DNA from: Candidatus Methylomirabilia bacterium | GTDB taxonomy: Bacteria > Methylomirabilota > Methylomirabilia > Rokubacteriales > CSP1-6 | Direction of reading: 5' to 3' | DNA: 64,000 nt | Assembly: GCA_041478145.1 (NCBI GenBank) | Contig: JBGOVO010000001.1 | Coordinates: 5,702-69,701, forward strand | In this document: in pieces, positions 15,501 to 58,324 of the stretch | Layout of the letters: each line of letters starts with the position of its first letter | Position numbering within the stretch: the first letter of the stretch is position 1 | The notes under the pieces: model-generated | Database searches by the model: none | Told to the model about the DNA's origin: nothing | The model's input: only the letters and a program-made list of their open reading frames with translations | Translations under genes and position numbers: made by a program

Positions 15501-15506
15501 TTCCCG

Positions 15507-34689: not shown

Positions 34690-35751
34690 ATGGCGATCGA
34701 CCTCGTCACTGACGAAGACGCGCTGCTGCGTCTCGAGAACGACTGGGAGTCGCTCCTCGCCGACTCCGCGCACCCGTCCATCTTCATGTCGTTCGACTAT
34801 CAGTACGCGGGCTGGAAGACCTTTCATCGTCCGCACTCGGAGCCGTTCGTCGTCTCGGTGCGTGACGCCCGGGGCGGGCTGATCGGGCTGGTGCCGTTCC
34901 GGAGCTCTCGCGACCGCGGCTCGTGGGTGCGCTGGCGGAGCCTCACCTACCTCGCCTCTTTCGAGATCGACCGCCCCGCTCCACTCATCCGCCTGGGATC
35001 CGAAGCCGAGTTCTGGGCGGCTCTCCAGCGTTTCCTCGCGGACGCGGGCGGCGGCTGGGACGTCCTCCGGATGCCGGAGCTGCCCGCGGACCAGGTGGCG
35101 GCCGCCCTGGCGGCGTTCAGCTCGCCGCGGCAGCGCTTCACGGCCTCGCCCGGCCCCTCCGCCATCGGCGTCGACCTGCGGCCGTCCTGGGACGAGTTCA
35201 TCGGGCAGCACCGGAACCTCCGGAAGCACGTCCGGGGGGTCGAGCGGAAGGTGCCCGGGCTCGACGTCTGGCTCTACGACGATCCCAGCCGGATTCTCGA
35301 GGGCTTCGCCCTCTTCACGGAGGTCGAGAGCCGGAGCTGGAAGGCGGGCAAGGTCGGCGTCTCGAAGGACGCCCGTCATACGGAGTTCTACCGTGATCTT
35401 CTCCAGCGCCTGGTCCGCCGCAAGCGGGTCGCCGTCCGGATCCTGGCCGCGGGAGACCAGCCGGTCGCGGGCGACATCACCTACACGCTCGGGCGGCGCG
35501 TGTTCTTCCATCACGGCACGTACGACCAGGCCTACGCCGACTGGTCCCCCGGTACCTTCCTCACCTGCCGCCTCTTCCAGGACTACATGGACTGCGGCTA
35601 CGACTCGGGGGACTTCCTCTGCGGCTTCGCGGACTACATGCGACCGTGGTGCACCATCGAATGGCACACCACGAACGTGATGATCACCCGGGAGTCCGGT
35701 CTCATGCGCCTCAGCCGGCTCGCCCAGCGCCTCAAGGCGCCCCGGTCATGA
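34690..35751 (+). CDS. CelD/BioF2-like GNAT-fold acyltransferase (second paralog)
   Basis: Same architecture as the 31125 gene (FMSFDYQYAGWKTF...). Internal ATG at 34690. Divergent from the DegT gene across about 25 bp. Confidence 0.5.
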   Translation: MAIDLVTDEDALLRLENDWESLLADSAHPSIFMSFDYQYAGWKTFHRPHSEPFVVSVRDARGGLIGLVPFRSSRDRGSWVRWRSLTYLASFEIDRPAPLIRLGSEAEFWAALQRFLADAGGGWDVLRMPELPADQVAAALAAFSSPRQRFTASPGPSAIGVDLRPSWDEFIGQHRNLRKHVRGVERKVPGLDVWLYDDPSRILEGFALFTEVESRSWKAGKVGVSKDARHTEFYRDLLQRLVRRKRVAVRILAAGDQPVAGDITYTLGRRVFFHHGTYDQAYADWSPGTFLTCRLFQDYMDCGYDSGDFLCGFADYMRPWCTIEWHTTNVMITRESGLMRLSRLAQRLKAPRS

Positions 35752-36794
35752 CGGAGCCCACGGCACTCTCACTCTCGGGCGTCTCGGTGGTCATTCCGAC
35801 CCACAATCGGGCCGCCCTCGTCACCCGCGCGGTCGCTTCGGCGCTCGCCCAGTGCCGCGAGGGCGACGAGGTGATCGTCGTGGACGACGATTCCCAAGAC
35901 GAGACCGAGGCGCGCCTCGCGCCCTATCGCGACCGGATCGTGTATCGGCGGGTCGCTCATGGTGGCGCCGGAAGAGCCCGAAATGTCGGGGTCGAACTCG
36001 CCAGGAACCCGCTCGTCGCCTTCCTGGACTCCGATGACGAATGGGTGCCCGGCAAGCTGGACATCCAGCGCGCGCTCCTGGCTGCACGGCCCGACGTTCT
36101 CTTCTGCTTCACCGATCAGATGTATCGCCAGCCATCCGGGCAGGAGTTCCACGGCGTCCTGCGCTACCTGTGCGGGGACGACTGGATGCGCGAGGACTGT
36201 GCGCCCGCGTTCCCCTTGTCGTCGATCGTGCGGCTGCCCGAAGGGCAGCCGGAGATCTCCGTCTACATCGGCGATGTCTATCCCAAGCAGATGGAAAAGG
36301 AGTTGCCTTCGGTGGTCACGCTAGTCTACCGTCGGGAGGCCGCGGGCGAATCGGTCCGGTTCCCCGAGGACCTCGAGACCCGGGAGGACTGGGAGTTTGT
36401 CGGGCGTCTGGCCCGGCAAGGCCTCGCCGCCTATCTGGACTACGAGGCGGCGATCGTGCACCAGCACAGCGGGCCACAGCTCACCAAGCTCGACAACGCG
36501 CTGCTCGTCCCGGCTCGCCTGACGCTGCTGCAGCGCGTGTGGGGGTCCGACGAAAAGTTCCTGAGAGAGCACGGCCAGCGCTATCGGCAGGTGCTCGACC
36601 AGCTACGACTGCAGCGGGCCCGGGATCTCCTGGGCTTTGGCCGCGCTGGAGAGGCACGGGAGGAACTCAGGCAGATTCGCCAAACACCGATCGCCCTTCG
36701 GCTGTTGAGTCATATTCCCGGGATCTTTACGCGCGAGCTGGTTCGGGCGCGACGGTATCTCCGGAGTAGGCTGCGGGCCAGGGACGGGCGCTGA
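35748..36794 (+). CDS. glycosyltransferase family 2
   Basis: VSVVIPTHNRAALVTRAVASALAQ...VIVVDDDSQDET...LDSDDEW: GT-A fold with DxD-type motifs. Confidence 0.75.
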   Translation: MTEPTALSLSGVSVVIPTHNRAALVTRAVASALAQCREGDEVIVVDDDSQDETEARLAPYRDRIVYRRVAHGGAGRARNVGVELARNPLVAFLDSDDEWVPGKLDIQRALLAARPDVLFCFTDQMYRQPSGQEFHGVLRYLCGDDWMREDCAPAFPLSSIVRLPEGQPEISVYIGDVYPKQMEKELPSVVTLVYRREAAGESVRFPEDLETREDWEFVGRLARQGLAAYLDYEAAIVHQHSGPQLTKLDNALLVPARLTLLQRVWGSDEKFLREHGQRYRQVLDQLRLQRARDLLGFGRAGEAREELRQIRQTPIALRLLSHIPGIFTRELVRARRYLRSRLRARDGR

Positions 36795-36833: not shown

Positions 36834-38210
36834 ATGCGCGTCACAATGATCGGCCATGCCGCGTTGCTGTGCGAGACGGAAGACCTCCGCATTCTGATGG
36901 ACCCGTGGATCGCGGGCCCGGCCAACTTTAGGAGCTGGTGGCATGTCCCCGAGGTGTGTCATGAGGTCGCGCGACTGCCGCGCGTCGACTACATTTACAT
37001 CTCCCATCTTCACGGAGACCACTTTCACGAGGCCACGCTGGCTCAGCTCACACAACGGCCGACGGTGCTGGTGCCCCGCCTATACCACGACCGGATGGTA
37101 ACCAAACTTCGCCGACTTGGGTTCACGAGTATCCGCGAGCTCCCCCACGGAGCGGAAGTAGGGCTGAGCGCCAGGACGCGCGTCTGCTGCACGCAGATGG
37201 GCAACGACAGCGTGATCGCGGTGGCAGACTCGTCGGCGGCCATGCTGAACGCCAACGATGCTTTGCAGGGATCGCGCCCAGACATCAAGCTGCCGCTCTT
37301 GCGCACGCTCAGTCAGCGCTATCGGTTCGATATCGCGTTTCTGGCTTTCGGGACCGCGGGGGCTTTTCCGAAGTGCTACCGCATCGAGGACATGTCGCCG
37401 AAGAGCATGGATCCCTGGCGGAAGGAACGGGCCATGCTGAGCAACTTCGTGACGGGAGTCAAGACGATCAATCCCAAGAGCGTCGTGCCCTTCGCCGGGG
37501 GCTTTGCTCTTTTGGCCGATCGCGTGATGTGGATGAACGAAGCCAAGACGACACCGGCGGACGCCCTGGCCGCCCTCGCCGAGGCGAAACTCTCCACGAC
37601 CGGCTTCGAGATGAACCCGGGCGATATCTGGGACAGCCGGGAGGGTCTTCTGCAGGTCCATCCGGCAGTGGACTGGACTCGGCGTCTGGATGTGATCCGG
37701 GAAATGCAGAGCACGCGGGCGGTCGAGGTGGCCCGAATCGAGGCCGATGATCGGCAGGGACCGGCGGACCTCTACGAAATCTTCCAGCGTCGGCTCAGTC
37801 AGAATGTACGCCGGTTCCCTCTTCTGCGGCGGCGGATGGACTGCTCGGTGCTCTTCGTTGTCGAGGGTGAGCCGGGAGGGCTGTGGGAAGTCGACCTCCG
37901 GAGACCATCCGGCTGGTTCCGGAACGGTGATTCAGGAGATTGGTCCCTGCGCGTGACCATTCCGGCGGGGCTCCTCGCCAGCGTGCTGAGTGACCCGGAC
38001 GGCTGGGAAACGCTGGGCATCGCCTATAAGCTCGACCTCTACATCCGGAAGGGGGCGCGCGCCAAGGAGGGGCTCCTCGATCGCTTGATCAATACACCCT
38101 CGCCGTTCTGGTTTCTTAAGGCGGTGCTGGCTCCTCGCTTCGCCGAGTTCGTGATTCACCGTCGGCTCGAGTTCTCGCAGATCCTCCGCGAGAAGATTTC
38201 GGGAACGTGA
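36834..38210 (+). CDS. MBL-fold metallo-hydrolase (function unknown)
   Basis: HxHxDH zinc-binding motif (YISHLHGDHFH). 458 aa. Local GC is noticeably lower than the flanking genes. Confidence 0.6.
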   Translation: MRVTMIGHAALLCETEDLRILMDPWIAGPANFRSWWHVPEVCHEVARLPRVDYIYISHLHGDHFHEATLAQLTQRPTVLVPRLYHDRMVTKLRRLGFTSIRELPHGAEVGLSARTRVCCTQMGNDSVIAVADSSAAMLNANDALQGSRPDIKLPLLRTLSQRYRFDIAFLAFGTAGAFPKCYRIEDMSPKSMDPWRKERAMLSNFVTGVKTINPKSVVPFAGGFALLADRVMWMNEAKTTPADALAALAEAKLSTTGFEMNPGDIWDSREGLLQVHPAVDWTRRLDVIREMQSTRAVEVARIEADDRQGPADLYEIFQRRLSQNVRRFPLLRRRMDCSVLFVVEGEPGGLWEVDLRRPSGWFRNGDSGDWSLRVTIPAGLLASVLSDPDGWETLGIAYKLDLYIRKGARAKEGLLDRLINTPSPFWFLKAVLAPRFAEFVIHRRLEFSQILREKISGT

Positions 38211-38247
38211 CGCGGAGCCACCGCGCGTCTTGAGGACATCGGATGCC

Positions 38248-38264
38248 CCTGTTCCGGGAACAGG
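38248..38264. promoter_or_regulatory. perfect 17-bp palindrome CCTGTTCC-G-GGAACAGG after the MBL-hydrolase gene
   Basis: Lies 38 nt after stop codon 38210, within the 158-bp gap before the secreted Cys-rich gene. It could be a terminator stem or an operator. Confidence 0.3.
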
Positions 38265-38368
38265 TACACTGCTTGTCTGGCCAGTCCCTGTATACTCGCC
38301 ATGCGTGTTAACCAATTTGGATGCGGCGGGGAGCGTCCTTTCCGTTGAGCCGGTCGAGGAGGTATTCA

Positions 38369-39445
38369 ATGCGTTGGGGGTTCCTTTTTCTGACAGTCTT
38401 GGTCGTCTCGGTCGTTTTCATGGGGGCAAGTGGCTCGACGCAGCGACTCCCGCTGGGTGACTGCTCGTCCGAACCTGGTCTCGCCGGGCGCTCGGACATC
38501 GTGTTCTGCGAGCCATGGGAGTCGCCGACGTGGTGGCGGCAAGGGTATTTACGCGACGGGCGGGTGGATCGTCCCTTGCCGGCGAGACCGGAAGAGCTCG
38601 TCGACGCCACGCTCGAGGGCAATGGGTGCGTTTCCGGGAAGTGTCTCCGTCTCACGATGAAGCAGTTCGAGACAACGGCCCTGAACCTTTACTGGCCCCT
38701 GAAGAACGCCGGGCTCCGGCCCGAGCAGCTCTATTTGCGGTACTACCTCAAGTTGGGGCCCACTTGGGATAACGAGAACTGCCGCGAGGTGAACGGCAAG
38801 CCGGTGCCAGAGGATGCGGGAGGAAAATTCCCCGGCCTCGCCGATATCCGCAACGACGGCGACCAGGCGGGTCAATGCGGTTATGGCGGAGAGCCCGGTG
38901 ACGGCATCGACTGCTGGTCCCACCGGGCCTACTTCCGCGACTGCTACAGCGGCAGCACCGGGAACCAGATCTGTCGGACGGTTCCGGGAGCGATCACTCG
39001 CTACGGGGGGTACGTCTATTTCGCGGGTCAGGAGGGCTTCACGGGCAACCCGGCCATCTGGGACAGCGATCCCTGGGGCCAGGCGTTTGGACGGGGCGGC
39101 TCGTGCGCCACCGATCCCACGGATCTCTTCTGCCCCGTCGGCCGCAACGCGGGCGTGCTCGTTCGGGAGCGCTGGTACGCGCTTGAGCAGTTCATCAAGA
39201 TGAACACGCCGGGCAAAGCCGACGGCGTCATCCGCGGGTGGGTGGACGGGGTCCTGGCCTATGAAAAGACCAACATGATTTTTCGGCTGCCCGGCCACCA
39301 CGGGCTGCACATCCGGCAGCTCTGGCTCGACGTCTACAAGGGCGGCGTCTATGGAGGATGCCGCGACGGCGAGGTGTGGCTGGACCAGCTCGTGCTCGCC
39401 ACTAACGCGCCGATCGGGCCGATCAAGCGGCCCGTCTCGCGCTGA
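38369..39445 (+). CDS. secreted cysteine-rich protein, possible beta-jelly-roll polysaccharide lyase/hydrolase-like (hypothetical)
   Basis: Signal peptide MRWGFLFLTVLVVSVVFMGASG, preceded by a GGAGG RBS 8 nt upstream of ATG 38369. Many Cys residues, and a C-terminal WYALEQFIKMNTPGKADGVIRGWVDG pattern reminiscent of lectin/lyase jelly rolls. Confidence 0.45.
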   Translation: MRWGFLFLTVLVVSVVFMGASGSTQRLPLGDCSSEPGLAGRSDIVFCEPWESPTWWRQGYLRDGRVDRPLPARPEELVDATLEGNGCVSGKCLRLTMKQFETTALNLYWPLKNAGLRPEQLYLRYYLKLGPTWDNENCREVNGKPVPEDAGGKFPGLADIRNDGDQAGQCGYGGEPGDGIDCWSHRAYFRDCYSGSTGNQICRTVPGAITRYGGYVYFAGQEGFTGNPAIWDSDPWGQAFGRGGSCATDPTDLFCPVGRNAGVLVRERWYALEQFIKMNTPGKADGVIRGWVDGVLAYEKTNMIFRLPGHHGLHIRQLWLDVYKGGVYGGCRDGEVWLDQLVLATNAPIGPIKRPVSR

Positions 39446-39451
39446 GGCTGC

Positions 39452-40498
39452 GTGACGATGGCCGCCGCCAGGGTTCCGGCCCTCCTCTTGCTCGCCACCG
39501 CCGCTCTGCTCCCGGCTGCGCCCCGGGCCGCCGCGGCCTCGGCCCTCGGCGACCTGGCCGCTTCCATGGCTCCCGGGACCTGGGCGGAGCTCAAGACGAA
39601 CGGGCTGACGCCGGCCCTCCTCCAGGTCCCGCGCCCCGTCATGATCTACAACGTGCTGGAGTACCAGAACAGCGGGGTCTGGGATCCTACCTCGCACCAG
39701 GTGCTCTTCGTGGGCGGGCCGCACGACGGCCTTGGGAAGTTCATCACCTACGACGAGCAGACCAATACCTGGCGGCAGGAGCCGGACCCGAAGCCAGAGG
39801 ACATGCTCGCGACCCACGGATACGACCACAACACGATCAATCCCAACACGGGTGAGCTGTACTTCCGTCCTTACGACAGCTCGAACATCTGGAAGTACCA
39901 CATCCCGACGAAGACGTGGAGCCGGCTGACGAGGATCCCGAACGAGGAGTACAACTGCTGTGGCGCCATCGAGTATTTTCCCGAGCGGAACGGCATCCTC
40001 TTCGTCGGCCGGAACGAGATCGAGTTCTACAGCTTCGGCTGGCGGAGCTGGTCCACGCCGTCCGCGACCATCAAGACGGGGCCGTACCATGCCACCGCGG
40101 AGTACAGCCCGGTGGACAAGGTCGTGGTGTTTGGGGGAGGCAGCGGCGTCAAGACCGTGTACGTCATGGACCAAAAGGGAGGCGTCAAGCGCGCCACCGA
40201 CTCCCCGTTCCCGCTCGACAGCGGAGGTCACGCCATTTTCACGGCGGACCCGGCCAGCGGGAAGTTCCTGCTCTTCGCCGAGGACGGGACCTTTCACGTT
40301 TACGATGCGGTCACCGATCGCTGGCAGCTCCAGAGCCAGCGGCCGCCCTTCTTCGACGTCGGACAATACGGCCCGGTGAGCTGCTCCATCGCGATCCCGA
40401 TCAGCACCCACGGCGTGGTGATGGTGCTCACCTACAATGCGCGCCGGCCCACGGTCTTTCTCTACAAGCACGCGGCCGGCCCCGCCGCGCCACGGTAA
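39452..40498 (+). CDS. secreted Kelch-like beta-propeller protein (hypothetical)
   Basis: Ala-rich signal peptide MTMAAARVPALLLLATAALLPAAPRAAAA. Repeated Kelch-like blades (ILFVGRNE, VVVFGGGSG, FLLFAEDGTFHVYD). Confidence 0.45.
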   Translation: MTMAAARVPALLLLATAALLPAAPRAAAASALGDLAASMAPGTWAELKTNGLTPALLQVPRPVMIYNVLEYQNSGVWDPTSHQVLFVGGPHDGLGKFITYDEQTNTWRQEPDPKPEDMLATHGYDHNTINPNTGELYFRPYDSSNIWKYHIPTKTWSRLTRIPNEEYNCCGAIEYFPERNGILFVGRNEIEFYSFGWRSWSTPSATIKTGPYHATAEYSPVDKVVVFGGGSGVKTVYVMDQKGGVKRATDSPFPLDSGGHAIFTADPASGKFLLFAEDGTFHVYDAVTDRWQLQSQRPPFFDVGQYGPVSCSIAIPISTHGVVMVLTYNARRPTVFLYKHAAGPAAPR

Positions 40499-40510
40499 GC
40501 CCGGAGCGTA

Positions 40511-42730
40511 GTGACCACCCTCCTGTCCCTCTTGGCTCCGTTCGTCGTGATTGGTGCCGTGTGGCTTCCTCATCTCGCCCACTACTACGTGGCCAGCCCG
40601 TACGTGCCTCCCGCGCTCCTTGAAGCGAGCCGCGCCACGCCGGACGATTCGCGGCTGCGCGAGCTGGCCAGCTTCGGTCCCGGGTTCGGAGTCGCCCTGC
40701 CCGTCTTTGCGCTCCCGGATGCGGTGCCGGCCGCCAGGAAGCTGCTCGCGGGGGAGGTGGATGTCCCCGGCCTTCGCCGGATGCGCGTCACACTGCCGTT
40801 CGCACCGGCCGACCTGGACAAGGACGACAACGAAGAACCGCTGAGCTTCGCCGGGCTGGTCCTGCCCCAGCTCCTGCTCCGCGCCTACTTCCAGAGCGGG
40901 GAGGACCGCTACCTCTTTGCAGCCCGGGATATGATCGTCGCGTGGGCCGAGTACGAGCGGCACGCATGGCTTCCGAGAGGCTTCCTCTGGAATGATCACG
41001 CGGTCGCGGCCCGGGTCCCTGTCCTCGCCGCCTTCTGGCTCGCCTATCGTCACCACCCAGCCTACGACCCGGCGGTCGGCGCGACACTTCTCACGTTCGT
41101 GGCCCGGAGCGGGTTGCTGCTCGCGCGGCCGGCGCACTTCACGGTCGCAACCAATCACGGTGTCATGCAGAACCTGGCGCTCTGGCACCTGGCCCTCGCG
41201 TTCCCGGAGCTGCCCGAGACCGCCCAGTACCGGAACACCGCGCTGGCCCGGCTCGACGAGGAGATGGGTTTCTACATCGATGACCAGGGCGTGGTTCTCG
41301 AGCATTCAGCAGGCTACCACCGGGCCGGCGTAGAGCTGCTCGCGATGGCCTTGAGATATCTCACCCTCATGGAGATGCCGCTCCCGGAGTCCTGGGTGCA
41401 GAAGTACGAGCGAGCGATCGACTTCTACGCCCAGCTGCGCCGGCCCGACGGCAGCCTTCCGGTCTTTGGCGATACCACTGGCGACCCCACTGACGATGCG
41501 TTTCCGGCCGGGCCGCTAACCACGCGGGTCCGGCCCGACGGCCGCAGCGAGCCGCTCGCGTATCGCGCGAGCTGGCCGGCAGCGCAGGCGCGGTCTCTCT
41601 ATCCGGTGGCCGGCTATTCGTTCTGGTGGAATGGCCTCGGAGCTACACGCGACTCGCGACACGCGAGCCAGACCGTGGTGGCCTGGTCGTATTTTCCCGG
41701 GCACGGCCACAAGCACGCCGACGAGATGAGCGTCCTCCTATGGGCGGCGGGCCAGACGTGGATCACGAACGTGGGCTACTGGCCTTACGGTGTGGCGGGT
41801 CGCTCCCGGGCCGAGTCGTGGAGTGGATCCAACGCGCCGCATCTCGTGACGGAGTCCCCGGCGAGCGCGCGCTCCACCCGGCTGATCTCATCCGCCTGGT
41901 CGGATCGTCTGGCCGCGCTCGACCTCGAGCGGCATCTCGATGCCGGGTACGTCGCCCGACGGCAGATCGTCCAGGTCGATCCGGACCTCTGGGTCATCGT
42001 GGATCATTCATCGGGAGCGCCGACGGAGACTGCCCGGATCCAGTGGACGACCGCGGCCGACGTGAAACTTCGGCGGGTCGGCCCGGTCGGGGTCTACCAT
42101 GTGGAGCCGCCGACAGCCCCGCCCCGCTTGTCGCTGCGTCTGGCCTCGTCATCGGGAGCCACGGTCCGGCAACTCCGGGGCAGCCTTGACCCGTTTGCCG
42201 GGTGGCACGTCGTGAACGACCGGCCGAAGCCGGCGGACACCCTCCTCGTCGATCAGCCAGCGGGGAACTCCTGGACGGTGGCCGTGTGGTGTCTCGATGC
42301 GGTGCCCGCGTCGAACCCCTGCCCGGACGATCCGGTCTCTACCCAATTCTCGGGCGACGAGGACTGGACGGTCACCGTTCCCCGGGCCGGCTCGTCCCTC
42401 ACGGTCGCCCGTGCCGGTCGAGCCGTGCGCGTCAGCCAGGCCGCGGTGGCCACCCCCGCCTCCGTGACGCTCCAGCCCCCCCCAGACGTCGCGGGTGCCA
42501 GAGCCCGGATCCGGGCCGCCTACGAGGCGGGGGTCAGGAAGTATCCACGGTTCCGCGATCTCGGTCCCTACCGCCTGCGCGTGACCTACGCATTGCTGGT
42601 CGTCGCCGGGCTCCAGGAGGTCTTCTTCGCGACGCTGTGCCCGACCGGATACCGGCTCTGGCTCCGACGCGTGGCGATTCTGGCGTGGGTAGCCATCGGG
42701 TTCTGGCTCGTCGCGGTCTACTTCGGTTGA
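40511..42730 (+). CDS. heparinase II/III-like family protein (alginate-lyase-like N-domain), membrane-anchored
   Basis: WSYFPGHGHKHADEMSVLLWAAGQTWITNVGYWPYG is the heparinase II/III signature. N- and C-terminal hydrophobic segments. GTG start. Confidence 0.7.
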   Translation: MTTLLSLLAPFVVIGAVWLPHLAHYYVASPYVPPALLEASRATPDDSRLRELASFGPGFGVALPVFALPDAVPAARKLLAGEVDVPGLRRMRVTLPFAPADLDKDDNEEPLSFAGLVLPQLLLRAYFQSGEDRYLFAARDMIVAWAEYERHAWLPRGFLWNDHAVAARVPVLAAFWLAYRHHPAYDPAVGATLLTFVARSGLLLARPAHFTVATNHGVMQNLALWHLALAFPELPETAQYRNTALARLDEEMGFYIDDQGVVLEHSAGYHRAGVELLAMALRYLTLMEMPLPESWVQKYERAIDFYAQLRRPDGSLPVFGDTTGDPTDDAFPAGPLTTRVRPDGRSEPLAYRASWPAAQARSLYPVAGYSFWWNGLGATRDSRHASQTVVAWSYFPGHGHKHADEMSVLLWAAGQTWITNVGYWPYGVAGRSRAESWSGSNAPHLVTESPASARSTRLISSAWSDRLAALDLERHLDAGYVARRQIVQVDPDLWVIVDHSSGAPTETARIQWTTAADVKLRRVGPVGVYHVEPPTAPPRLSLRLASSSGATVRQLRGSLDPFAGWHVVNDRPKPADTLLVDQPAGNSWTVAVWCLDAVPASNPCPDDPVSTQFSGDEDWTVTVPRAGSSLTVARAGRAVRVSQAAVATPASVTLQPPPDVAGARARIRAAYEAGVRKYPRFRDLGPYRLRVTYALLVVAGLQEVFFATLCPTGYRLWLRRVAILAWVAIGFWLVAVYFG

Positions 42731-42748: not shown

Positions 42749-43543
42749 TCAAGCGGGACAACCAGTGGCCCGGAAGTAGAGGGAATCGGTCAGGATCACC
42801 TTGACGCGAGGATCCCGGGTGAGCTCGCACAGCGTGCCGGGATCATTGACGGTGAACAGGTGGATCGGCACGCGCGCGAACACGAAACCCACCGACCTGT
42901 CATATTGCATGTAATCGAGTGATACGGCGGCAAAGCTCGCTGAGCGGAATCGCATGCCGGCCACGAGGAGATCGCGTACATGCGCCAGGCGGCCCGCCCG
43001 CGTCGGGGTGATCTGGAGCCAGAGGCTGGTTCGCATCCCTAGGCTGGCCACTGCGCCGAGTCTCCTCGGATCCACGGACTCGACGATCGCCCGGTCACGC
43101 ATTCGGGCGGTCTCGAGCTCGGTCCGCAGGCTATCGGTGGCGCGCTGCGCATCCGTGTCGGACAGCGTTCTCAGGTTCCAAAAGTCCAGCCAGACCAGGC
43201 CGTGTGGCGGCACGGCGGCGAGCATTTCGGTCAGATGCAGAACCGCGGGCAGCCTCGCCGCAACCGCCTCTTCCGAGATCACGTAGAGTCCATTCCGCCG
43301 GGCATCGTAGATCACGTCGATCTCGACACCAGGTGCCCCGAGGGCAAAGGCGCGTCGGAGCCCCTGCGGAGAGTTCTCCGGCGCGCCGTCCGAGAGGGCC
43401 CGGTGAGACCAGGCCTTGCTCGGGCCCTGGTAGAAGACCGGCACCGTCGGATTCGGCCGGAGAACGTAGACGAGCGCCCCACCGAAGGCCAGGGGCGCGA
43501 TGGCAGCTGAGATCAGAATCGACCGCGCGGACCTGACCCGCAA
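42749..43543 (-). CDS. glycerophosphodiester phosphodiesterase family protein (membrane-anchored)
   Basis: GP-PDE motif HRALSDGAPENSPQGLRRAFALGAPGVEIDV with an N-terminal TM anchor. Last gene of the minus-strand operon. Confidence 0.7.
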   Translation of the reverse strand: MRVRSARSILISAAIAPLAFGGALVYVLRPNPTVPVFYQGPSKAWSHRALSDGAPENSPQGLRRAFALGAPGVEIDVIYDARRNGLYVISEEAVAARLPAVLHLTEMLAAVPPHGLVWLDFWNLRTLSDTDAQRATDSLRTELETARMRDRAIVESVDPRRLGAVASLGMRTSLWLQITPTRAGRLAHVRDLLVAGMRFRSASFAAVSLDYMQYDRSVGFVFARVPIHLFTVNDPGTLCELTRDPRVKVILTDSLYFRATGCPA

Positions 43544-43574
43544 GCTCTCTCCTGTCAGGCAGCGCCGCGGGCGC

Positions 43575-45461
43575 CTACGGGCGCGGCGGGCTAGAGGGCC
43601 GGGCCGGGCGCATCCGTGTCAGATTGACGGTTCGAACGACGGACGCTTCGTCGTCGACGTCACCGCTCACGAGCCCGGTCGTGTCGCCCGCGACCCGTAT
43701 CGTACCTTCCCGGCTCCCGCACTTGACGAAGATCAGGTCGCGGTCGTCGCCCCGCGCATGCATGATGCAGCGACCGGGCCTGGGCGGGTCGGCCAGGAAG
43801 GCACCCTCCTGCGGGCCCACGCAGTGCCGCTCGCCGAGCAGCGCCTCGATTGAGGCGCCGAAATCACGCTGTTGGAAGTGCTCGTCCAGCACTCGTGGCA
43901 GGGCGATGGCGCGGGTCACGATCACCCCCGGTATGCGCGTGACCGCGGATGCGCCGAAGCGAGCGAACTCGTCCTTCCGGAATGGCTCCATGGCCCGGTG
44001 GTCGCCGGTGATGAACAGCAGCCCGTTCTCGAAGAAGCGCGCGGCCATCAGTCGGTCGTAGAGCGCCCCGATTTGCGCGTCGGTCTCCCGGATCACCTGC
44101 TCCTCGCCGTGGAGCTGAGCGCCATCCGGAGTCATGAACGGGCGATGGCTCCAGTACGTCTGGATGACCGCGAAGTATGGTCGGCTCGCGGGCATCCCGC
44201 GGAGCTCCTCCAGCGCGACCGCGTAGAGCAGACGATCCGGCACCGAGTCGAAGGGCCCGCGCACGGTCTGTCCGTCGAACCGGGGATCGTCATGCCCGAC
44301 GAGCTTCTGGAAGCCCTGTGTCCGCAGCCACGTGTCCTGCCCGAGGAACCCCAGGTCTCCGCCCGCGATGAACTCGGTGCGGTAGCCCTGGTCCGACAGC
44401 ACCCGCGCGAGGGATCGCGAGGTATCCCCGAAGTCGGTGAGTCGCGGCGATCCCCACTTGTTGAACTCCGTCTTTTCCGGGACGAACGGAAACGTCCGCG
44501 TCAACAGCGAGATCAGCCCGCCGATCGTGGTCCACCCGTTGGCGTGGAAGTTGGTGAGCGACGTCTCCCGCTTCGCGATCTCATCGAGCCTCGGGGTCCA
44601 GTCCTCCACGCCCGAGAAGTATCTCGAGTGATACGCCGAGAGGCTCTCGACGATGAGGAGGATCACGTTGACGCGCCGCTGCCGGCTCAGGTGGCACGTC
44701 TCGGGCGGCGGGGGCGTCGCGAGTAGACTGGCGCGGAACGGGTCGGTGAAGTTGCTGTGGATGAAGAAGTTCGCGTTTCGCTCGAGGAAGTTCTCGAAGA
44801 GAGGCTTGTCACCGAACGAGTAGACATACCCTGGAATCGGAACGAAATGGAAGAACGTCAGCAGGAGGGCCGCAAAGACAAGAGACCGGCTCCGAAGAGG
44901 TTGGCGAGCCGGTCGGACGAAGAACAGGTAGCAGGTGTACAACGCCATCCAGACCACGACCCCGCCGACTGCGAGCTTGACGACGAGCTTCCAGGCCGGG
45001 ATGCCGAAGGCGATCAACCAGCCGGTGCGCAGCAAGGAAAAGATCGAACCAAGCTCCGCCGAGAAGGTGACGATGTCGCTGACGTAGAGGCGCGTGGCGA
45101 AGAAATAGTAGGCGAAGACGTCCGCGGTGTACAAGAGGACGATCGCGAGGCAGGTGACCATAGAAAGCCGGGACACGATGCCGGCGGCGCGGCTGGACGA
45201 GTGGCGCGCCACCGCCAGGGCCGCCGCGTAGAGGACCAGGAGCAGGGCGAGGATGGTCGCGTCGTGCTGGATGATGGCCAGGAGGATCCATCCGGTCGCG
45301 GCCGGTCGCATGAGCTTCACCTTGAAGAGGAGCGTCGCCATCACGAAGATCGCGAGGGCGAGCTCTGGACGGCGGACACGCAAGACAGAGAGGAGCCCCA
45401 CTTCATGGACAGTCGTGCGTTCCGTAGAGGGTTCGGAGGTCGCATCGCGCATCGGGTCCAT
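43575..45461 (-). CDS. LtaS/MdoB-like phosphoglycerol (or phosphoethanolamine) transferase, alkaline-phosphatase/sulfatase superfamily membrane protein
   Basis: Five N-terminal TM helices followed by a sulfatase-fold domain (NVILLIVESLSAYHSRYFSG ... FITGDHRAMEP). Confidence 0.7.
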   Translation of the reverse strand: MDPMRDATSEPSTERTTVHEVGLLSVLRVRRPELALAIFVMATLLFKVKLMRPAATGWILLAIIQHDATILALLLVLYAAALAVARHSSSRAAGIVSRLSMVTCLAIVLLYTADVFAYYFFATRLYVSDIVTFSAELGSIFSLLRTGWLIAFGIPAWKLVVKLAVGGVVVWMALYTCYLFFVRPARQPLRSRSLVFAALLLTFFHFVPIPGYVYSFGDKPLFENFLERNANFFIHSNFTDPFRASLLATPPPPETCHLSRQRRVNVILLIVESLSAYHSRYFSGVEDWTPRLDEIAKRETSLTNFHANGWTTIGGLISLLTRTFPFVPEKTEFNKWGSPRLTDFGDTSRSLARVLSDQGYRTEFIAGGDLGFLGQDTWLRTQGFQKLVGHDDPRFDGQTVRGPFDSVPDRLLYAVALEELRGMPASRPYFAVIQTYWSHRPFMTPDGAQLHGEEQVIRETDAQIGALYDRLMAARFFENGLLFITGDHRAMEPFRKDEFARFGASAVTRIPGVIVTRAIALPRVLDEHFQQRDFGASIEALLGERHCVGPQEGAFLADPPRPGRCIMHARGDDRDLIFVKCGSREGTIRVAGDTTGLVSGDVDDEASVVRTVNLTRMRPARPSSPPRP

Positions 45462-46421: not shown

Positions 46422-47729
46422 CTAGTTACGCTGCCGCATGACCGGCTTCACCGGGCGGCCCAGCAGGTACTTGCCGATGCCTTCCTCGAGGGCCCGCCGG
46501 TACACGACGAGCGCCTCGCCCACGGCCTCCACCGTGCGATCGATGTCCTGGTCGGAGTGCGAGAAGCTCACCACCATGGACGGCATGATGAACCCGCGCT
46601 TCAGCATCTCCTGGAGGAACAACGTCCGGTGGGCCTGCGAGGGCTGCTTGTTCTCGTCGCGCGCCGCATAGACGAGGTTGCAAGGCATGCCGAGCACCTG
46701 GAAGTGCTCGGTCAAGCGGAGGCTGGCGATCACCTGCCCGAGTCCATCGCGCAGCCGCTGGCCCTGATGCCAGAGGTATTCGACGACCTTCTCCCGCTGG
46801 TAGATCCGCATGACCTCGATGGCGGCGGCCAGGCTGTGCGTCTCCGCGCCGTGCGTGGTGGAGAGCAGGAACACCCGGTCCCGGTCGTGCTGGAGACCGC
46901 CCAGGGCCATGATCTCCCGCTTGCCGACCATCGCCGAGACCGAGAAGCCGTTCCCCATCGCTTTCCCGAAGGAGGCCAAGTCGGGAACGACTCCGTAGTA
47001 CTCCTGGCCACCTCCCAGGTGCCAGCGGAAGCCGGTGATCATCTCGTCGAGCACGAACAGCGCCCCGTGCCGGGCGCACAGCCGCTGGACTTCGGTGAGG
47101 AAGCCGTCCACCGGCTCCATCGCGGTGGCCGGCTCGAGCATCACGCAGGCGATGCGCCCCGGGTACTGGGCGAACAGGGCCTCGATCCCCGCGCGATCGT
47201 TGTAGTGGAACTTCACGGTGAGCGCCTTCACCGCGTCCGGAATGCCCGCCGAGACCGGCGTGGTCCCGATGAACCAGTCCTCGACGGAGAAGAAGGGGTG
47301 CTCCGCGCAGACCGCCACCATGTCCCGGCCGGTGTAGGCGCGGGAGAGCTTCACCGCCGCCGTCGTCACGTCCGAGCCGTTCTTGGCGAACTTCACCATC
47401 TCGGCGCCGTGGATAAGCCCGAGGAGCTCCTCCGCGCATTCGAGCTCGATGGTCGCGGGGCGGGTGAAGTTGCTGCCGAGCAGCATTTGCCGCTGCGCCG
47501 CCTCGACCACCGGCCCGTAGGCGTGGCCGAGCGTCACCGCCCGGAGCCCCATGCCGTACTCGACGAGCTCGTTGCCGTCCGCGTCCCAGACGTGGCTGCC
47601 CGCTCCCCGCACGATGTAGGGCGCCGAGTGCTCGGGATACTGGTCGTCCCCCTTGGCGTAGGTGTGGCTGCCCCCGGGAATGACGGCGTGGAACCTCGAC
47701 TGCAACGCTTGCGATTTGGCGAAGTTCAT
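46422..47729 (-). CDS. class III PLP aminotransferase (glutamate-1-semialdehyde aminomutase-like)
   Basis: AVIPGGSHTY...YIVRGAGSHVWDADGNELVEYGMG...FVLDEMITGFRW...ASFGKAMGNGF: GSA-AM/AT-III signature including the PLP lysine. Confidence 0.8.
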   Translation of the reverse strand: MNFAKSQALQSRFHAVIPGGSHTYAKGDDQYPEHSAPYIVRGAGSHVWDADGNELVEYGMGLRAVTLGHAYGPVVEAAQRQMLLGSNFTRPATIELECAEELLGLIHGAEMVKFAKNGSDVTTAAVKLSRAYTGRDMVAVCAEHPFFSVEDWFIGTTPVSAGIPDAVKALTVKFHYNDRAGIEALFAQYPGRIACVMLEPATAMEPVDGFLTEVQRLCARHGALFVLDEMITGFRWHLGGGQEYYGVVPDLASFGKAMGNGFSVSAMVGKREIMALGGLQHDRDRVFLLSTTHGAETHSLAAAIEVMRIYQREKVVEYLWHQGQRLRDGLGQVIASLRLTEHFQVLGMPCNLVYAARDENKQPSQAHRTLFLQEMLKRGFIMPSMVVSFSHSDQDIDRTVEAVGEALVVYRRALEEGIGKYLLGRPVKPVMRQRN

Positions 47730-47748
47730 ACGCGTTTGGCCCCCGATG

Positions 47749-49095
47749 TCATGCGGTCGTGGTGCGCGGATGCTTCTCTCCGAACAGGGTGTCGAACTGC
47801 GACTCCAGCGCCCGCCGGCAGCGCCCGGCCTCCTCCTCGAGCCGGGCCGCGATCCGGGCTCGCGCGGACTCGAGCGCCTCGAAGCGCTCGGCGAGCGATC
47901 GGCTATCCAGGCCGGCCGCGGGCAGCAGGTAGGCGTCCTGGCCGGCCCGCTGCATCAGCTCGTCGATCTTGCTCTGGTACGATAGCCCCACCACCGGCTT
48001 GCGGAGCAGGAACGAGAGGAGGATGCCGTGGAACCTCCCGCTCACGACCAGGTCGAGCGTCGAGATCGTGGCCACGAGGTCGTCCACCGTTTCCACCGTC
48101 CGCTCCAGCACCCGCCCCGGCAGCCCCGGCCCGCGGGCGGCCAGCCGCGTCTTCAGGTCCGCGATCACGCGCGGGTCCGACCGCAGCTGCGTCGGGAAGA
48201 GCACCACCGAGTACCCGCGGGCGAGCAGCCACTCCGTGAAGCCCGCCAGGGTGTCCAGGTAGCCCTCGTACCGCGCGCGCTTCCCGCCCGGCCAGTACCG
48301 CGCGTCCTCGTGGGGAAACGGGTTGAGCCCGACCACCAGCGGCGCGCTCCCGGGCCGGGACGCGGCTTCCGCCTTCTCCACCCGCAGCGCCCACGCGGGA
48401 TCCGCATAGACCGCGCCCGCCACGCCGAGGGTCGCGATCAGCGCGCGCGAGCCCTCGTCGCGGAATGAGCGGTGGTCGCCGAGCCTCAGGGCGGCTCCGA
48501 CGAAGAGCCGGGCGAGGCGCGAGTCGAGCGGGCCCGCGCCCACGCTCACGAACAGCACCCGAGCCCCGGCCAGCCGCGCCATCACCGTCCACTTCAGGAC
48601 GAGGTACGGGAACGCCCACGTCCCGCCGAAATCGTCGGAGAGCTGGCCGCCGCCGCCCACCACGAGGCAATCGATCCCGCGCAGGGCCCTCACCGTCCGC
48701 GTGACGAAGGCCGCCTCCCCCACCAGACCCCGAGTTCCCGTCCAGAGGGCTCGCAGCCCACGCAGGAGCCGGCCCACGACCGGAGCGGCCCGCAGCCGCG
48801 CCTTGAGGCGGTCGAGAGCCGTGACCAGCCGGCCGCGCTGACTTGGGGCGGCGCTGACGACCTCGCGGCCGGATATCCTGGCGGCCTTCCGGGTCTGGCG
48901 CTGGGCGGGCAGCGCGATCACGCCGTGCCGGGCCTCCGTGTCCTCGGGGTCGAACGAGATCGCATAGAGCCGGGCCCCTTCACGCCGATCCCGGACCTGC
49001 TGCAGGATCGCCGCGAGCGTGGCTTCGTCCCCGAGGTTGCGGTTCCCGTAGTTGCTGAGGACCGCGATCGCCCCGACCCTGCCCCGGCGGTTCAC
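47749..49095 (-). CDS. polysaccharide pyruvyl transferase family protein (CsaB/WcaK-like)
   Basis: GNRNLGDEATLAAIL N-terminal motif and a C-terminal VVSGRFHGILLSF. Confidence 0.75.
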   Translation of the reverse strand: MNRRGRVGAIAVLSNYGNRNLGDEATLAAILQQVRDRREGARLYAISFDPEDTEARHGVIALPAQRQTRKAARISGREVVSAAPSQRGRLVTALDRLKARLRAAPVVGRLLRGLRALWTGTRGLVGEAAFVTRTVRALRGIDCLVVGGGGQLSDDFGGTWAFPYLVLKWTVMARLAGARVLFVSVGAGPLDSRLARLFVGAALRLGDHRSFRDEGSRALIATLGVAGAVYADPAWALRVEKAEAASRPGSAPLVVGLNPFPHEDARYWPGGKRARYEGYLDTLAGFTEWLLARGYSVVLFPTQLRSDPRVIADLKTRLAARGPGLPGRVLERTVETVDDLVATISTLDLVVSGRFHGILLSFLLRKPVVGLSYQSKIDELMQRAGQDAYLLPAAGLDSRSLAERFEALESARARIAARLEEEAGRCRRALESQFDTLFGEKHPRTTTA

Positions 49096-49771: not shown

Positions 49772-50644
49772 TCAGTCGGCGCGGCCGTCCAGCCGGCTCA
49801 TGACCTGCATCCGCTGCTCGTCGCCGTTGCCGTGGTGCGGGACCGGCTCCCCCGGAGCTCCCCTTCCGCCCGCCTTCCACACTTCCCACGGCCGCTCGCC
49901 CCGCGCGTGCATCTCGTCGAACAGCTGCTTGTCCTTCAGCGTGTCCATGCAGCCCCAGAAGCCCTCGTGCCGGTAGGCCATGAGCTGGTCACCCGCGATG
50001 AGCCGGTGGAACGGCTCCTGGACCAGCTCCTCGCCCTCGCGCATGTAGTCGAACACCTCGCGCCGGAACGCGAAGAACCCGCCGTTGATCCACAGCCCCG
50101 ACTTGGCCACGTGCTTGATGTCCTTCACGGCCCCTTCCGGGGAGAGCGAGACGAGATGGAAACTGTAGTTGGGCCGCACGCAGACAAAGCTGCCGACCTT
50201 GCCCTGGCTCAGGAAGTCGTCGAGATACCAGTCCAGCGGCAGGTCGGAGAGGCCGTCCGTATAGTTGGCGAGGAACACCTCCTCGCCGTCGAGGTACCGC
50301 TCCACCGCCTTGAGGCGCTGCCCGATGTTGGAGTGCTGTCCCGTGTCGGCGAACGTGATCGTCCAGTCCGCGATGTCACGCCCGTAGAGCCGTACGTCCT
50401 TGCCGCCCTTCGACAGCACGAAGTCGTTGGACAGGCACTCGTCGTAATTAAGGAAGTAATTCTTGACCATGTCGCCGCGGTATCCGAGGCAGAGAATGAA
50501 GTCGGTATGGCCGAAGTGGGCGTAGTACTTCATCACGTGCCAGATGATCGGCCGCGGCCCGATATTAACCATGGGCTTCGGGATGGTGTCGGAGTATTCC
50601 CGGAGCCGCGTCCCCAGTCCTCCGCAGAACAAGACGACCTTCAC
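49772..50644 (-). CDS. rfbF: glucose-1-phosphate cytidylyltransferase
   Basis: VKVVLFCGGLGTRLREYSDTIPKPMVNIGPRPIIWHVMKYY. A GTG at 50644 lies 6 nt downstream of GAGGGGG. The longer N-terminal extension in the track ORF overlaps the upstream gene in another frame and was rejected. Confidence 0.85.
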   Translation of the reverse strand: MKVVLFCGGLGTRLREYSDTIPKPMVNIGPRPIIWHVMKYYAHFGHTDFILCLGYRGDMVKNYFLNYDECLSNDFVLSKGGKDVRLYGRDIADWTITFADTGQHSNIGQRLKAVERYLDGEEVFLANYTDGLSDLPLDWYLDDFLSQGKVGSFVCVRPNYSFHLVSLSPEGAVKDIKHVAKSGLWINGGFFAFRREVFDYMREGEELVQEPFHRLIAGDQLMAYRHEGFWGCMDTLKDKQLFDEMHARGERPWEVWKAGGRGAPGEPVPHHGNGDEQRMQVMSRLDGRAD

Positions 50645-50693
50645 GATGGCCACCCCCTCTTCGCCCGGCAGGTGAAAGTTCCGATGCCGTCGG

Positions 50694-52010
50694 TCATTTC
50701 GCGAGCTCCTTGAGTAGGCCGTTGGCCTCGAGCAGATCGGCCGCTCGGCGGATCGCCCCCAGCTCGCGGTCCGAGCGCCGCGAGATGTCCAGCAGGGAGT
50801 GCTCCCCGTCGGACAGGTTGAGCACCCAGAGCAGGGCCAGCTCGTCCACCCCGTCCTGCGCGTAACCGCCCATCGACCGGTACAGGCCGCGCTTGCCGAG
50901 CTGCGGCTCACCCTTCGGGTTCTGGTTCAGGTAGCGCTGGTTGCCTTCGAGAGCGTCCAGGATCGCCAGGACCGTCTCGAGCGACTCCGCGAGCGACGCC
51001 GCCGAGACCAGGCCCGGGTTGTCGGCCGAGGTGTGGTACTCGGGGAAGCGTCCGTGCGGCGTGCGCATGAAGCAGCCGACCGGCAGGTTGAAGCCGGGCG
51101 AGCAGAACTGCCGCTCGTCGTACCCGTAGGGCGTGAACTCCTCAATCCGATGCGCGACACCCCGCTCCTGGAGCACGTGGGCGACCACGCGGTCCACCTC
51201 CGCGTCCCCGCGGCGACTCTTCTTGTAGGTGAAGGCCCCGCGGTCCCCCACGCACGCGAGCACGAGGCCGTGCTTGATCCGGTCCACCGTGGCCTCGTTG
51301 AGGGCCAGCCACGTGATAGAGCCGATGGTCCCTGGGATGAAGAGGAAGCGGTACGAGTACCGGAGCGCGCACTCGCGCAGCCGGCTGGCCAGCATCATCG
51401 CGAGCACGACACCCGAGAGGTTGTCGTTGGCGAGGGACGGATGGCAGACGTGGCAGGAGATCAGGACCTCATCCGACGTCGCTCCCGGCAGGTAGCACTC
51501 CCCGTAGGTGAGGGCGCCCGGCTCCAGGGTGGAGTCGATGCAGACCTCGTACTGGTCCTCGGGGAGGGTGGTCATCTGGCGGTGGCTGAGGCAGAACCCC
51601 CAGGTCTCGCGGTAGTACGACGTCCGGTACGGCACCCAGTCCGGCGCGGCCGGGAGGGTGTGCAGGTGGGGCACCAGCTCCTGCAGCGACATCCGCGCCC
51701 GGACAGGCGAGCTGTAGTTGACCACGTGAAGGTTCGAGCGACGGAAGTCGACCACCCGCTCTCCGCTCGAGCTGGCGATGTAGGCCTCCCGGATGTTCCA
51801 CTCCTTCGGCACTGCCCAGTCGAGCACCTGCGTTCCCGAAGGCACCTCGCGCAGCGCCAGCGGCGCGCGCTCGGCGACGTAGCGGAGCGTCTGCCGGAGC
51901 CCGTTGCCGGTGATGCTCCGGCACAGCGGGTAGAGGTCTTCCACGGCGCGGTACATGGCCGCGCCGGCCGCGCCCCGGTCGAGCCCCGCCCGCACGTCTG
52001 CGATCCGCAT
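50694..52010 (-). CDS. DUF4910/DUF2172-type aminopeptidase-like protein with C-terminal winged-helix region (polysaccharide-locus associated, function unknown)
   Basis: LYPLCRSITGNG N-terminal motif, an M28-like central fold, and a C-terminal wHTH-like tail. The start at MRIADV (ATG 52010) has a GAGG RBS and lies 10 nt after the RfbC-like stop. Confidence 0.55.
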   Translation of the reverse strand: MRIADVRAGLDRGAAGAAMYRAVEDLYPLCRSITGNGLRQTLRYVAERAPLALREVPSGTQVLDWAVPKEWNIREAYIASSSGERVVDFRRSNLHVVNYSSPVRARMSLQELVPHLHTLPAAPDWVPYRTSYYRETWGFCLSHRQMTTLPEDQYEVCIDSTLEPGALTYGECYLPGATSDEVLISCHVCHPSLANDNLSGVVLAMMLASRLRECALRYSYRFLFIPGTIGSITWLALNEATVDRIKHGLVLACVGDRGAFTYKKSRRGDAEVDRVVAHVLQERGVAHRIEEFTPYGYDERQFCSPGFNLPVGCFMRTPHGRFPEYHTSADNPGLVSAASLAESLETVLAILDALEGNQRYLNQNPKGEPQLGKRGLYRSMGGYAQDGVDELALLWVLNLSDGEHSLLDISRRSDRELGAIRRAADLLEANGLLKELAK

Positions 52011-52020
52011 GCCCGTCGCC

Positions 52021-53786: not shown

Positions 53787-53825
53787 CGCTCCTCTGACGG
53801 GTATGGGTGCGTGGGCGCGCTCGCG

Positions 53826-56397: not shown

Positions 56398-56490
56398 AGC
56401 ACCTCCTATGCGCTTGTCCGCTCCTGATCGTATACGCTAGACTCCCGTCGACGCCAATGTATAAGCCGAACACGCCTTGCCGGCTCCGCC

Positions 56491-58245: not shown

Positions 58246-58324
58246 CTCTTCGTAACCACGCCAACGCGTATGGTCGGGATTTCACACGAGGGCTCATCTG
58301 AACCCCTGGACGAAAGATGACGCA

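Follow-up and report, generated by a model that had tools for sequence, protein, structure and literature searches.

Why should proteins of the polysaccharide lyase (PL) type be encoded in the middle of a locus that makes a polysaccharide? The question arises in a 64-kb stretch of the Candidatus Methylomirabilia contig JBGOVO010000001.1 (the window), the whole of which is, from its marker genes, an exopolysaccharide (EPS) locus of the XrtA/PEP-CTERM (Wzx/Wzy) type. A first-pass annotation had picked out positions 36834-42730 as a lower-GC island of four secreted or membrane proteins, and took these to be an acquired module for EPS processing or depolymerisation. Its four open reading frames (ORFs) were confirmed at or near the positions reported (36834-38210, 38369-39445, 39452/39458-40498 and 40511-42730), and metagenome contigs of 100% identity, on which genes were called independently, have the same four genes. 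Pfam and Foldseek evidence bears out the presence of lyase-type proteins and a Kelch propeller inside the EPS locus, and polymer processing is the best reading of them, although the idea of their acquisition as one unit does not hold. We think it fairly likely that the last three genes, covering 38369-42730 with intergenic spacing of 6-12 bp, provide a polymer-processing set that acts in the periplasm, or after secretion, on the uronate polymer of the locus itself. These three genes are:

38369..39445, + strand: Cys-rich homologue of PL14-type beta-jelly-roll lyases, 358 aa (PF21294; AlphaFold2 (AF2) model; Foldseek)
39458..40498, + strand: six-bladed Kelch-type beta-propeller, 346 aa (AF2 model; Foldseek; alternative GTG start at 39452)
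40511..42730, + strand: membrane-anchored PL12/heparinase-III-like enzyme, 739 aa (Pfam Hepar_II_III_N + Hepar_II_III_C)

Folds and predicted active sites of the three proteins

The Cys-rich protein had been put forward as having no clear family and as the likeliest new family of the region. That description has to be abandoned: it scores 37 bits with PF21294 (Polysaccharide_lyase_14), for which the gathering score is 27, a homologue search found 116 clusters that nearly all carry the same annotation, and an exhaustive profile search returned 6,277 representatives at E<=1e-3, many of them multi-domain, and 372 at E<=1e-30. Less divergent relatives fit more of the profile (P0116, 138.9 bits over positions 8-215; P0114, 63.5 bits over 39-199), and a 90%-cluster mate comes from a Candidatus Rokuibacteriota metagenome-assembled genome. 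The AF2 model, made from a 50-sequence alignment, is a beta-jelly roll (predicted local distance difference test score (pLDDT) 90.2, predicted template modelling score 0.88), the best solved neighbours of which in Foldseek are all beta-jelly-roll uronate lyases:

Aly36B, family PL36: Foldseek E 1e-13
AkAly30, family PL14: Foldseek E 1e-11
Trichoderma glucuronan lyase, family PL20: Foldseek E 1e-9
vAL-1, family PL14: Foldseek E 3e-9

Across 50 sequences of the family, K153 (in GGKFPG), W183, R186, Y215 and Y217 are invariant, whilst conservation is 90% or more at S184, C170 and C182. A HMMER alignment sets GGKFPGL...QC...CWSHR of the window protein on GGKLPGL...KC...CFSLR of AkAly30. With a chain-to-paper offset of 12, C170 and C182 land on Cys115 and Cys124, which form the disulfide of the AkAly30 active-site loop (PMC8618178), and the offset agrees with that numbering; C170-C182 is predicted to be the corresponding active-site-loop disulfide. 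Another relative, P0114, which has CBM96 and PL14 domains, aligns with AkAly30 at E 4e-5 over a single unbroken stretch in which both GGK and YAY lie, and K153, Y215 and Y217 therefore correspond to AkAly30 K99, Y140 and Y142. The predicted catalytic residues of the window protein are K153, S184, R186, Y215 and Y217, the conservation of which points to an active enzyme.

The protein is around 100 residues longer than the solved PL14 and PL36 enzymes and has 12 Cys residues, including those of an inserted loop between R186 and Y215. Hydropathy identifies a hydrophobic N-terminus (residues 4-22); the sequence PLGDC was considered as a lipobox and rejected on reading, and a lipoprotein assignment with it. 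Relatives are found fused to CBM96, fn3 and disaggregatase repeats, combinations that fit extracellular matrix-degrading enzymes. In a scan of one genome per species, PL14-like genes were found in many lineages, among them Gammaproteobacteria (Bowmanella, Lacimicrobium and Lentisalinibacter), Methylomirabilota, Gemmatimonadota, Myxococcota and Acidimicrobiales, and 12 of the 16 genome loci with long flanks had EPS genes within 8 kb.

The second protein was correctly described from the start as a Kelch-like propeller with an Ala-rich signal peptide. Its AF2 model (pLDDT 91.7, around 24 strands) is a six-bladed Kelch propeller, which in Foldseek resembles the Kelch domains of MKLN1, KLHL and KEAP1 (4e-12 to 1e-8), a generic similarity. 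Over the whole protein, Kelch_6 and Kelch_1 narrowly exceed their Pfam thresholds (28.3 against 25.3 and 20.2 against 20.1, respectively) with no individually significant stretch, and the majority of its 73 homologues are without Pfam annotation; the alignment of the family offers no segment sufficiently conserved to seed a collection scan. Nothing in these results indicates catalysis. In six loci of relatives (designated here, as are their contigs, by L-numbers: L005, L031, L033, L034, L038 and L041) the Kelch gene lies directly upstream of the heparinase-like gene, and a 36%-identical homologue occurs in an XrtA-type locus with no recognisable heparinase-like gene. The propeller probably binds or scaffolds the membrane enzyme as its partner.

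That enzyme, encoded by the third gene, is a membrane-anchored heparinase II/III-like protein, as had been proposed: it has both Pfam domains, Hepar_II_III_N (62.7 bits, gathering score 22) and Hepar_II_III_C (45.9 bits, gathering score 24), and three hydrophobic segments identified by hydropathy (residues 1-19, 691-709 and 721-739). The predicted order is an N-terminal segment, a catalytic region comprising a toroid plus a beta-sandwich, and two C-terminal segments. The family is large, with more than 845 full-length homologues of around 740 aa. Among PDB sequences the match is to heparinase III (4mmh, 9e-12), in which Tyr294 and His424 are catalytic and Asn240 is the neutraliser (PMC12088678); N215, Y269 and H400 of the window protein align to Asn240, Tyr294 and His424 (N216, Y270 and H400 in chain numbering, counted by hand). 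Y269 and H400 do not vary across 27 family sequences, in which conservation of N215 is at least 90%. The NCBIfam HepC equivalog model scores far below its cutoff (39 against 700), and heparan sulfate is an unlikely substrate, given that the gene lies in a soil bacterium among genes for EPS biosynthesis.

The predicted polymer and what the trio would do with it

The type of the locus was established by judging its markers against curated NCBIfam cutoffs, all of which are exceeded by two XrtA-system glycosyltransferases (TIGR03087, 438.8 against 316.65; TIGR04063, 475.3 against 442.05), an O-antigen-ligase-like protein (TIGR03097, 426.6 against 188.1), an acyl-CoA ligase (TIGR03098, 624.6 against 592.35), the XrtA deacetylase (TIGR03006, 369.4 against 276.2), a FemAB-family protein (TIGR03019, 398.1 against 260.35) and a chain-length determinant (TIGR03007, 290.7 against 278.85). 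A Wzx flippase is also encoded. No exosortase XrtA gene was matched among the approximately 45 window ORFs scanned, and it may lie outside the window; PEP-CTERM sorting tails on the three trio proteins were ruled out by inspection of their C-termini. The locus further encodes two nucleoside diphosphate (NDP)-sugar dehydrogenases (one UDP-ManNAc-dehydrogenase-like and TviB-like), a TviC-like epimerase and WecB, from which the polymer is predicted to contain N-acetylhexosaminuronic acids such as N-acetylmannosaminuronic acid, residues of the kind that lyases attack.

Since both enzymes of the trio carry residue sets suited to abstraction of the C5 proton of a uronate, they most likely cut the acidic polymer of their own locus by beta-elimination. 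The PL14-like protein would be a soluble, secreted, disulfide-rich lyase. The PL12-like protein would be tethered to the inner membrane near the Wzy/Wzc machinery, where it could cut or remodel the chain, with the Kelch propeller binding or scaffolding it. The site of action would be the periplasm or the cell surface, and the purposes could include control of chain length, release of polymer or clearing of stalled polymer. There were no transporter or sugar-catabolism genes near the trio.

How far the three belong together was apparent from a metagenome scan seeded with the heparinase-like family, which yielded 368 relatives; the 32 loci flanked by 3 kb or more on each side were analysed. Homologues of the window glycosyltransferase GT4_32198 were present in 13 of them, the XrtA-associated acyl-CoA ligase in 12 and a pyridoxal-phosphate-dependent decarboxylase in 10. 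The Kelch gene was present in four, always directly upstream and only where the heparinase-like protein was at least 51% identical, and the PL14-like gene in two. The pattern is a nested one: the PL12-like protein is a widespread component of XrtA-type loci, the Kelch-PL12 pair is found in one clade, and the PL14-like protein is an optional extra.

Several observations weigh against a polymer-processing set directed at the locus's own product. As the majority of heparinase-like loci are without the Kelch and PL14-like genes, the three need not form one machine, and in L034, a close relative, the Kelch-heparinase pair occurs without a PL14-like gene. The topology of the PL12-like protein would also allow for a cytoplasmic catalytic domain, as seven Lys or Arg residues precede its second hydrophobic segment and the positive-inside rule leaves the orientation ambiguous. 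For the PL14-like protein, the PF21294 match is confined to profile positions 128-197 of 215, the C-terminal third. The catalytic sets used in the mapping are K99, S126, R128, Y140 and Y142 in AkAly30, and K197, Y233 and Y235 in vAL-1, for which the numbering of the Cys115-Cys124 disulfide is the only cross-check. The CWSHR/CFSLR alignment that pairs the Ser-x-Arg motifs is collinear, yet taken alone non-significant (1.8 and 4.6 bits), and this correspondence would be the weakest link of the mapping. A family profile of residues 112-232, searched against PDB sequences, retrieved no PL14 structure, only chance matches to spider toxins, and the mapping consequently rests on the full-length and transitive alignments.

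The alternative that fares best concerns the PL12-like protein, which might instead be a uronate C5-epimerase that tailors the nascent chain at the polymer level, analogous to human DS-epi1, a eukaryotic Golgi enzyme acting on its polymer during biosynthesis. In favour of this, the PL12-like gene is found in the biosynthetic loci of many lineages, with XrtA-type loci of many bacterial phyla among them, where it is far commoner than the PL14-like and Kelch genes. DS-epi1 has the toroid plus beta-sandwich fold of PL8, PL12 and PL21 lyases and shares their His/Tyr active-site residues, and the authors of its structure argue that a lyase could become an epimerase through small changes (PMC8006597). 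Its signal peptide, luminal catalytic region and C-terminal double-pass anchor are mirrored by the segments at 1-19, 691-709 and 721-739, a layout that would place the catalytic region of the PL12-like protein in the periplasm. Furthermore, an invariant Tyr423 lies 23 residues after His400, equal to the His450-Tyr473 spacing of DS-epi1; heparinase III has Val at the aligned position, with a Tyr three residues later. However, the double-Tyr arrangement is also present in true lyases (PMC8006597), and hence no residue examined discriminates between the two activities, whilst the lyase heparinase III has exactly the Asn/Tyr/His triplet that is conserved in this family. The likeness seen to DS-epi1 is moreover one of layout, fold and spacing. 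We know of no bacterial epimerase of the Hepar_II_III family, and regard an epimerase as unlikely, if worth keeping in mind. Similarly doubtful is the broader version in which the PL12-like protein is a C5-epimerase or other non-degradative tailoring enzyme with a Kelch partner in one clade, leaving the PL14-like protein as the sole true depolymerase.

Elsewhere in the locus there are further genes that bear on the polymer. Three AsnB-type XrtA/PEP-CTERM amidotransferase paralogues are encoded on the + strand (7727-9367, 13605-15500 and 24982-26907), and the locus has a GlmS paralogue in addition to the two NDP-sugar dehydrogenases and WecB; together these suggest amidated hexosaminuronic acids in the polymer. 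On the - strand, 49772-53825 encodes a glucose-1-phosphate cytidylyltransferase, a DUF4910/DUF2172/M28-like protein with a winged-helix domain, and a C-methyltransferase (Methyltransf_13/14), which as a group suggest a branch leading to a CDP-linked, C-methylated deoxysugar. The right-handed beta-helix fold, known from AlgG-type C5-epimerases as well as from lyases of pectate, alginate and chondroitin, is represented by a 425-aa protein (55159-56436, - strand; Pfam Beta_helix 66.7 bits, NosD 41.6 bits), a third candidate polymer-level enzyme of the locus; a NosD-like homologue adjoins heparinase-like and PL14-like genes in L064. Finally, 58256-59719 (+ strand) encodes a sigma-54-dependent response regulator that scores 344 bits with TIGR02915, the PEP-CTERM-box regulator model, below its cutoff of 502.6. 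The locus may therefore have RpoN-dependent promoters, use of which would explain why a scan of 36.7-43.7 kb found no sigma-70-like promoter near the trio; terminator-like matches in the same scan were mostly intragenic.

Gene gain and loss at the centre of the locus

Whether the region arrived as a single island has to be judged together with the features that flank the trio, which are as follows:

35748..36794, + strand: family 2 glycosyltransferase (GT2; Pfam Glycos_transf_2, 92 bits); strain-variable
36834..38210, + strand: metallo-beta-lactamase (MBL)-fold metalloprotein, 458 aa (SHLHGDHFH motif, Pfam Lactamase_B_3); strain-variable
38211..38368, + strand: intergenic gap of 158 bp, with a GC-rich hairpin at around 38247-38266, then AGGAGG
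42749..43543, - strand: 264-aa protein without family, with an N-terminal hydrophobic segment; strain-variable
43575..45461, - strand: polytopic membrane protein of sulfatase / phosphoglycerol-transferase type (Pfam Sulfatase, 77 bits); strain-variable

The AGGAGG in the gap can be read 6 nt before the ATG of the PL14-like gene at 38369.

In a relative with 82% identity, to which L005 belongs, the gene order is FemAB-like, PL14-like, Kelch, heparinase-like and GT2. The trio is syntenic in L005-L008 and in L033, and all three genes are also present in L022 (Lentisalinibacter orientalis) and L024. Identities in the 82%-identical relative are 87% for the PL14-like protein, 89% for the Kelch protein and 68% for the heparinase-like protein, and those of flanking genes range from 60% to 91%. 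Missing from its contigs are the MBL gene and its neighbouring GT2 gene, as well as the 42749-43543 ORF and the sulfatase-like gene; the GT2 gene is absent from all of the syntenic relatives L005-L008 and L033-L034, as the MBL gene is from the syntenic relatives, and the other pair from L005 and L033-L034. From these gains and losses, the centre of the locus is a hotspot of gene gain and loss around a conserved Kelch-heparinase core.

Base composition gives a similarly graded picture. Against a window mean of around 0.68-0.69, the 1-kb bins from 36 to 39 kb have GC contents of 0.653, 0.638 and 0.625, and those from 39 to 41 kb have 0.665 and 0.671, such that a modest dip at 36-41 kb does exist. 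However, the bins at 41-43 kb, inside the heparinase-like gene, are at background (0.685 and 0.687), the borders originally drawn are not matched, and similar or equal dips occur at 23-24 kb (0.652), 44-45 kb (0.645) and 50-51 kb (0.642), with further comparable ones at 53-56 kb (0.651-0.657) and 57-59 kb (0.640-0.642). Relative to the per-gene reference (GC mean 0.682, standard deviation (sd) 0.023; GC at third codon positions (GC3) mean 0.881, sd 0.051), GC is 0.630 in the MBL gene (z = -2.3), the lowest of the region, 0.651 in the PL14-like gene (-1.4), 0.660 in the Kelch gene (-1.0) and 0.691 in the heparinase-like gene (+0.4). The corresponding GC3 values are 0.789, 0.822, 0.897 (normal) and 0.836, and GC3 is also low in the neighbouring GT2 gene (35748-36794, 0.817) and 42749-43543 ORF (0.792), giving a soft depression from 35.7 kb, at the GT2 gene, to 43.5 kb, at the end of that ORF, in which every gene deviates by less than 2 sd. 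The low GC of the Kelch gene results from its amino acid composition (GC1, at first codon positions, 0.60); GC1 is no different in the 89%-identical orthologue of L005, where GC3 is normal at 0.951. A mis-framed entry of the composition table, 50930-52112, was disregarded.

The proposal that 36.8-42.7 kb is a horizontally acquired island, which brought an EPS-depolymerisation module as one unit, could draw on several of these features: GC of 0.63-0.66 over 36.8-40.4 kb, GC3 under the mean in the GT2, MBL, PL14-like, heparinase-like and 42749 genes, absence of the MBL and GT2 genes from relatives and of the PL14-like gene from one close relative, and the hairpin-bearing gap between the MBL and PL14-like genes. 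Yet all the GC3 z-scores are above -2, with comparable dips elsewhere in the window, and the compositional shift is mild; GC is at background in the heparinase-like gene and GC3 is normal in the Kelch gene, and in L005 the PL14-like and Kelch genes both have normal GC3. The trio is also syntenic in relatives with identities like those of flanking genes. There is no tRNA in the window, nor are there long flanking repeats (only short ones at the level of chance), and the screened ORFs included no integrase, transposase or other mobility gene. As regards the complete unit, the island claim is therefore largely refuted, and we hold a single acquisition to be improbable.

Nor are all four of the originally listed products secreted or membrane proteins, as the annotation had it. 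This is the case for the PL14-like, Kelch and heparinase-like proteins, but the MBL-fold protein has neither a signal peptide nor a hydrophobic segment by hydropathy, and looks cytoplasmic. It had been called a secreted hydrolase on the basis of an HLHGDH sequence; the fold and the HxHxDH motif are genuine, with Lactamase_B_3 matching at 35.3 bits (gathering score 24) over residues 2-81 only, and no Pfam match to the C-terminal 250 aa or so. Its closest relatives in the PDB are diiron monooxygenases, 8a90 (4e-8) and CmlA (0.01), which come ahead of or mixed with hydrolases, and it may act as a tailoring oxygenase on a sugar or on a substrate bound to a carrier protein. No relatives emerged when metagenome contigs were scanned with a sequence pattern. 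The start of the adjacent GT2 gene is ambiguous, as the longest ORF begins at 35646 and the Joint Genome Institute call is 348 aa. The MBL and GT2 genes form a separate, cytoplasmic, strain-specific tailoring cassette.

On the other side of the trio, the sole Pfam match to the 42749-43543 protein is a sub-threshold one to GDPD (17.5 bits against 23.6). The 43575-45461 protein matches the NCBIfam model for phosphoglycerol transferase I at 1e-13, below its cutoff, and is likely, from this similarity, to be a decoration enzyme. The pair at 42749-45461 is possibly a second strain-specific cassette, perhaps for decoration of a glycerol-phosphate type. Variation of another kind is seen in L005, where the gene call joins a pyruvyl transferase and a class-III aminotransferase in a single protein of 889 aa (15281-17950); these are separate genes in the window (46422-49095) and in L008.

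Relation to known lyases

Both enzyme folds belong to known families. With the PL14 enzymes vAL-1, from a Chlorella virus (3GNE/3A0N), and AkAly30, from Aplysia kurodai (5GMT), the Cys-rich protein has in common PF21294, the jelly roll (target-normalised TM-scores 0.63-0.70), the lysine of GGK(L/F)PGL, the YxY motif, the Cys pair of the active-site loop and, less certainly, the CxSxR motif. Identity is only 11-17%, however, and the window protein differs in its 12 Cys and approximately 80-100 extra residues, in an insertion of 17 residues, Cys included, that follows the Arg and precedes the Tyr-x-Tyr, and in being a bacterial protein of an EPS biosynthesis locus rather than one from a virus or a herbivore gut. 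The bacterial jelly-roll uronate lyase Aly36B (PL36; 6KCV/6KCW/6KZK) is the best structural match (target-normalised TM-score 0.67-0.70) as well as the best profile-to-PDB sequence match of the family (1.2e-4), but is catabolic and shares 16-17% identity. In Aly36B a single Lys serves as both base and acid (PMC8618178), unlike the residue pattern of the window protein, which follows PL14.

Jelly-roll lectins and toxin binding domains are among the weaker Foldseek matches, and this, with the restriction of the Pfam match to the C-terminal part, might suggest that the PL14-like protein is a non-catalytic, lectin-like carbohydrate-binding jelly roll. Such a role is quite unlikely, given that the Lys, Arg and Tyr-x-Tyr are invariant at PL14 active-site positions and the best fold matches are all enzymes.

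Heparinase III of Pedobacter heparinus (4MMH) and Bacteroides thetaiotaomicron (5JMD) has the same Hepar_II_III_N+C architecture and Asn/Tyr/His triplet as the PL12-like protein, which differs in its one N-terminal and two C-terminal hydrophobic segments and in its occurrence in EPS biosynthesis loci of soil bacteria. Although the characterised PL14, PL36, PL20 and PL12 enzymes are degradative, it is very unlikely that the trio serves feeding on foreign polysaccharides (alginate, glucuronan or glycosaminoglycans) and is in the EPS locus incidentally, because its neighbours are all biosynthetic, with no TonB-dependent receptor, transporter, oligo-uronate lyase or KDG-pathway (2-keto-3-deoxygluconate) gene nearby, linkage to XrtA-type EPS genes is seen repeatedly in different phyla, and a membrane-anchored enzyme is poorly suited to external polymers.

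Processing of the locus's own polymer, by comparison, is an established theme. Self-directed depolymerases of EPS loci include AlgL (PL5) of the Pseudomonas and Azotobacter alginate operon, ExoK/ExsH, PslG and BcsZ, which likewise are encoded inside the biosynthetic locus and act on its product in the periplasm or at the surface. Lyases are expressed by alginate producers that do not use this polymer as a carbon source (PMC8286568). These enzymes have other folds and families and are from synthase-dependent systems, or are hydrolases, whereas the window combines a propeller with two lyase-fold proteins, and its locus is of the Wzx/Wzy XrtA type. No relevant paper came up in literature searches that paired heparinase or PL14 with exosortase or EPS gene clusters; within the searchable literature, neither the Cys-rich clade of bacterial PL14-like proteins nor the recurrent association of these lyase folds with loci of the XrtA type appears to have been described.

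XrtA/PEP-CTERM loci drive the formation of flocs and biofilms by soil and wastewater bacteria, and their polymers and periplasmic processing are almost uncharacterised. A PL12-like membrane enzyme is frequent in such loci, often has a Kelch partner and is sometimes joined by a Cys-rich PL14-type lyase. Hence the three proteins are candidates for setting the chain length, release or uronate stereochemistry of these EPS, and the lyase-type proteins could be new lyases for N-acetylhexosaminuronate polymers.

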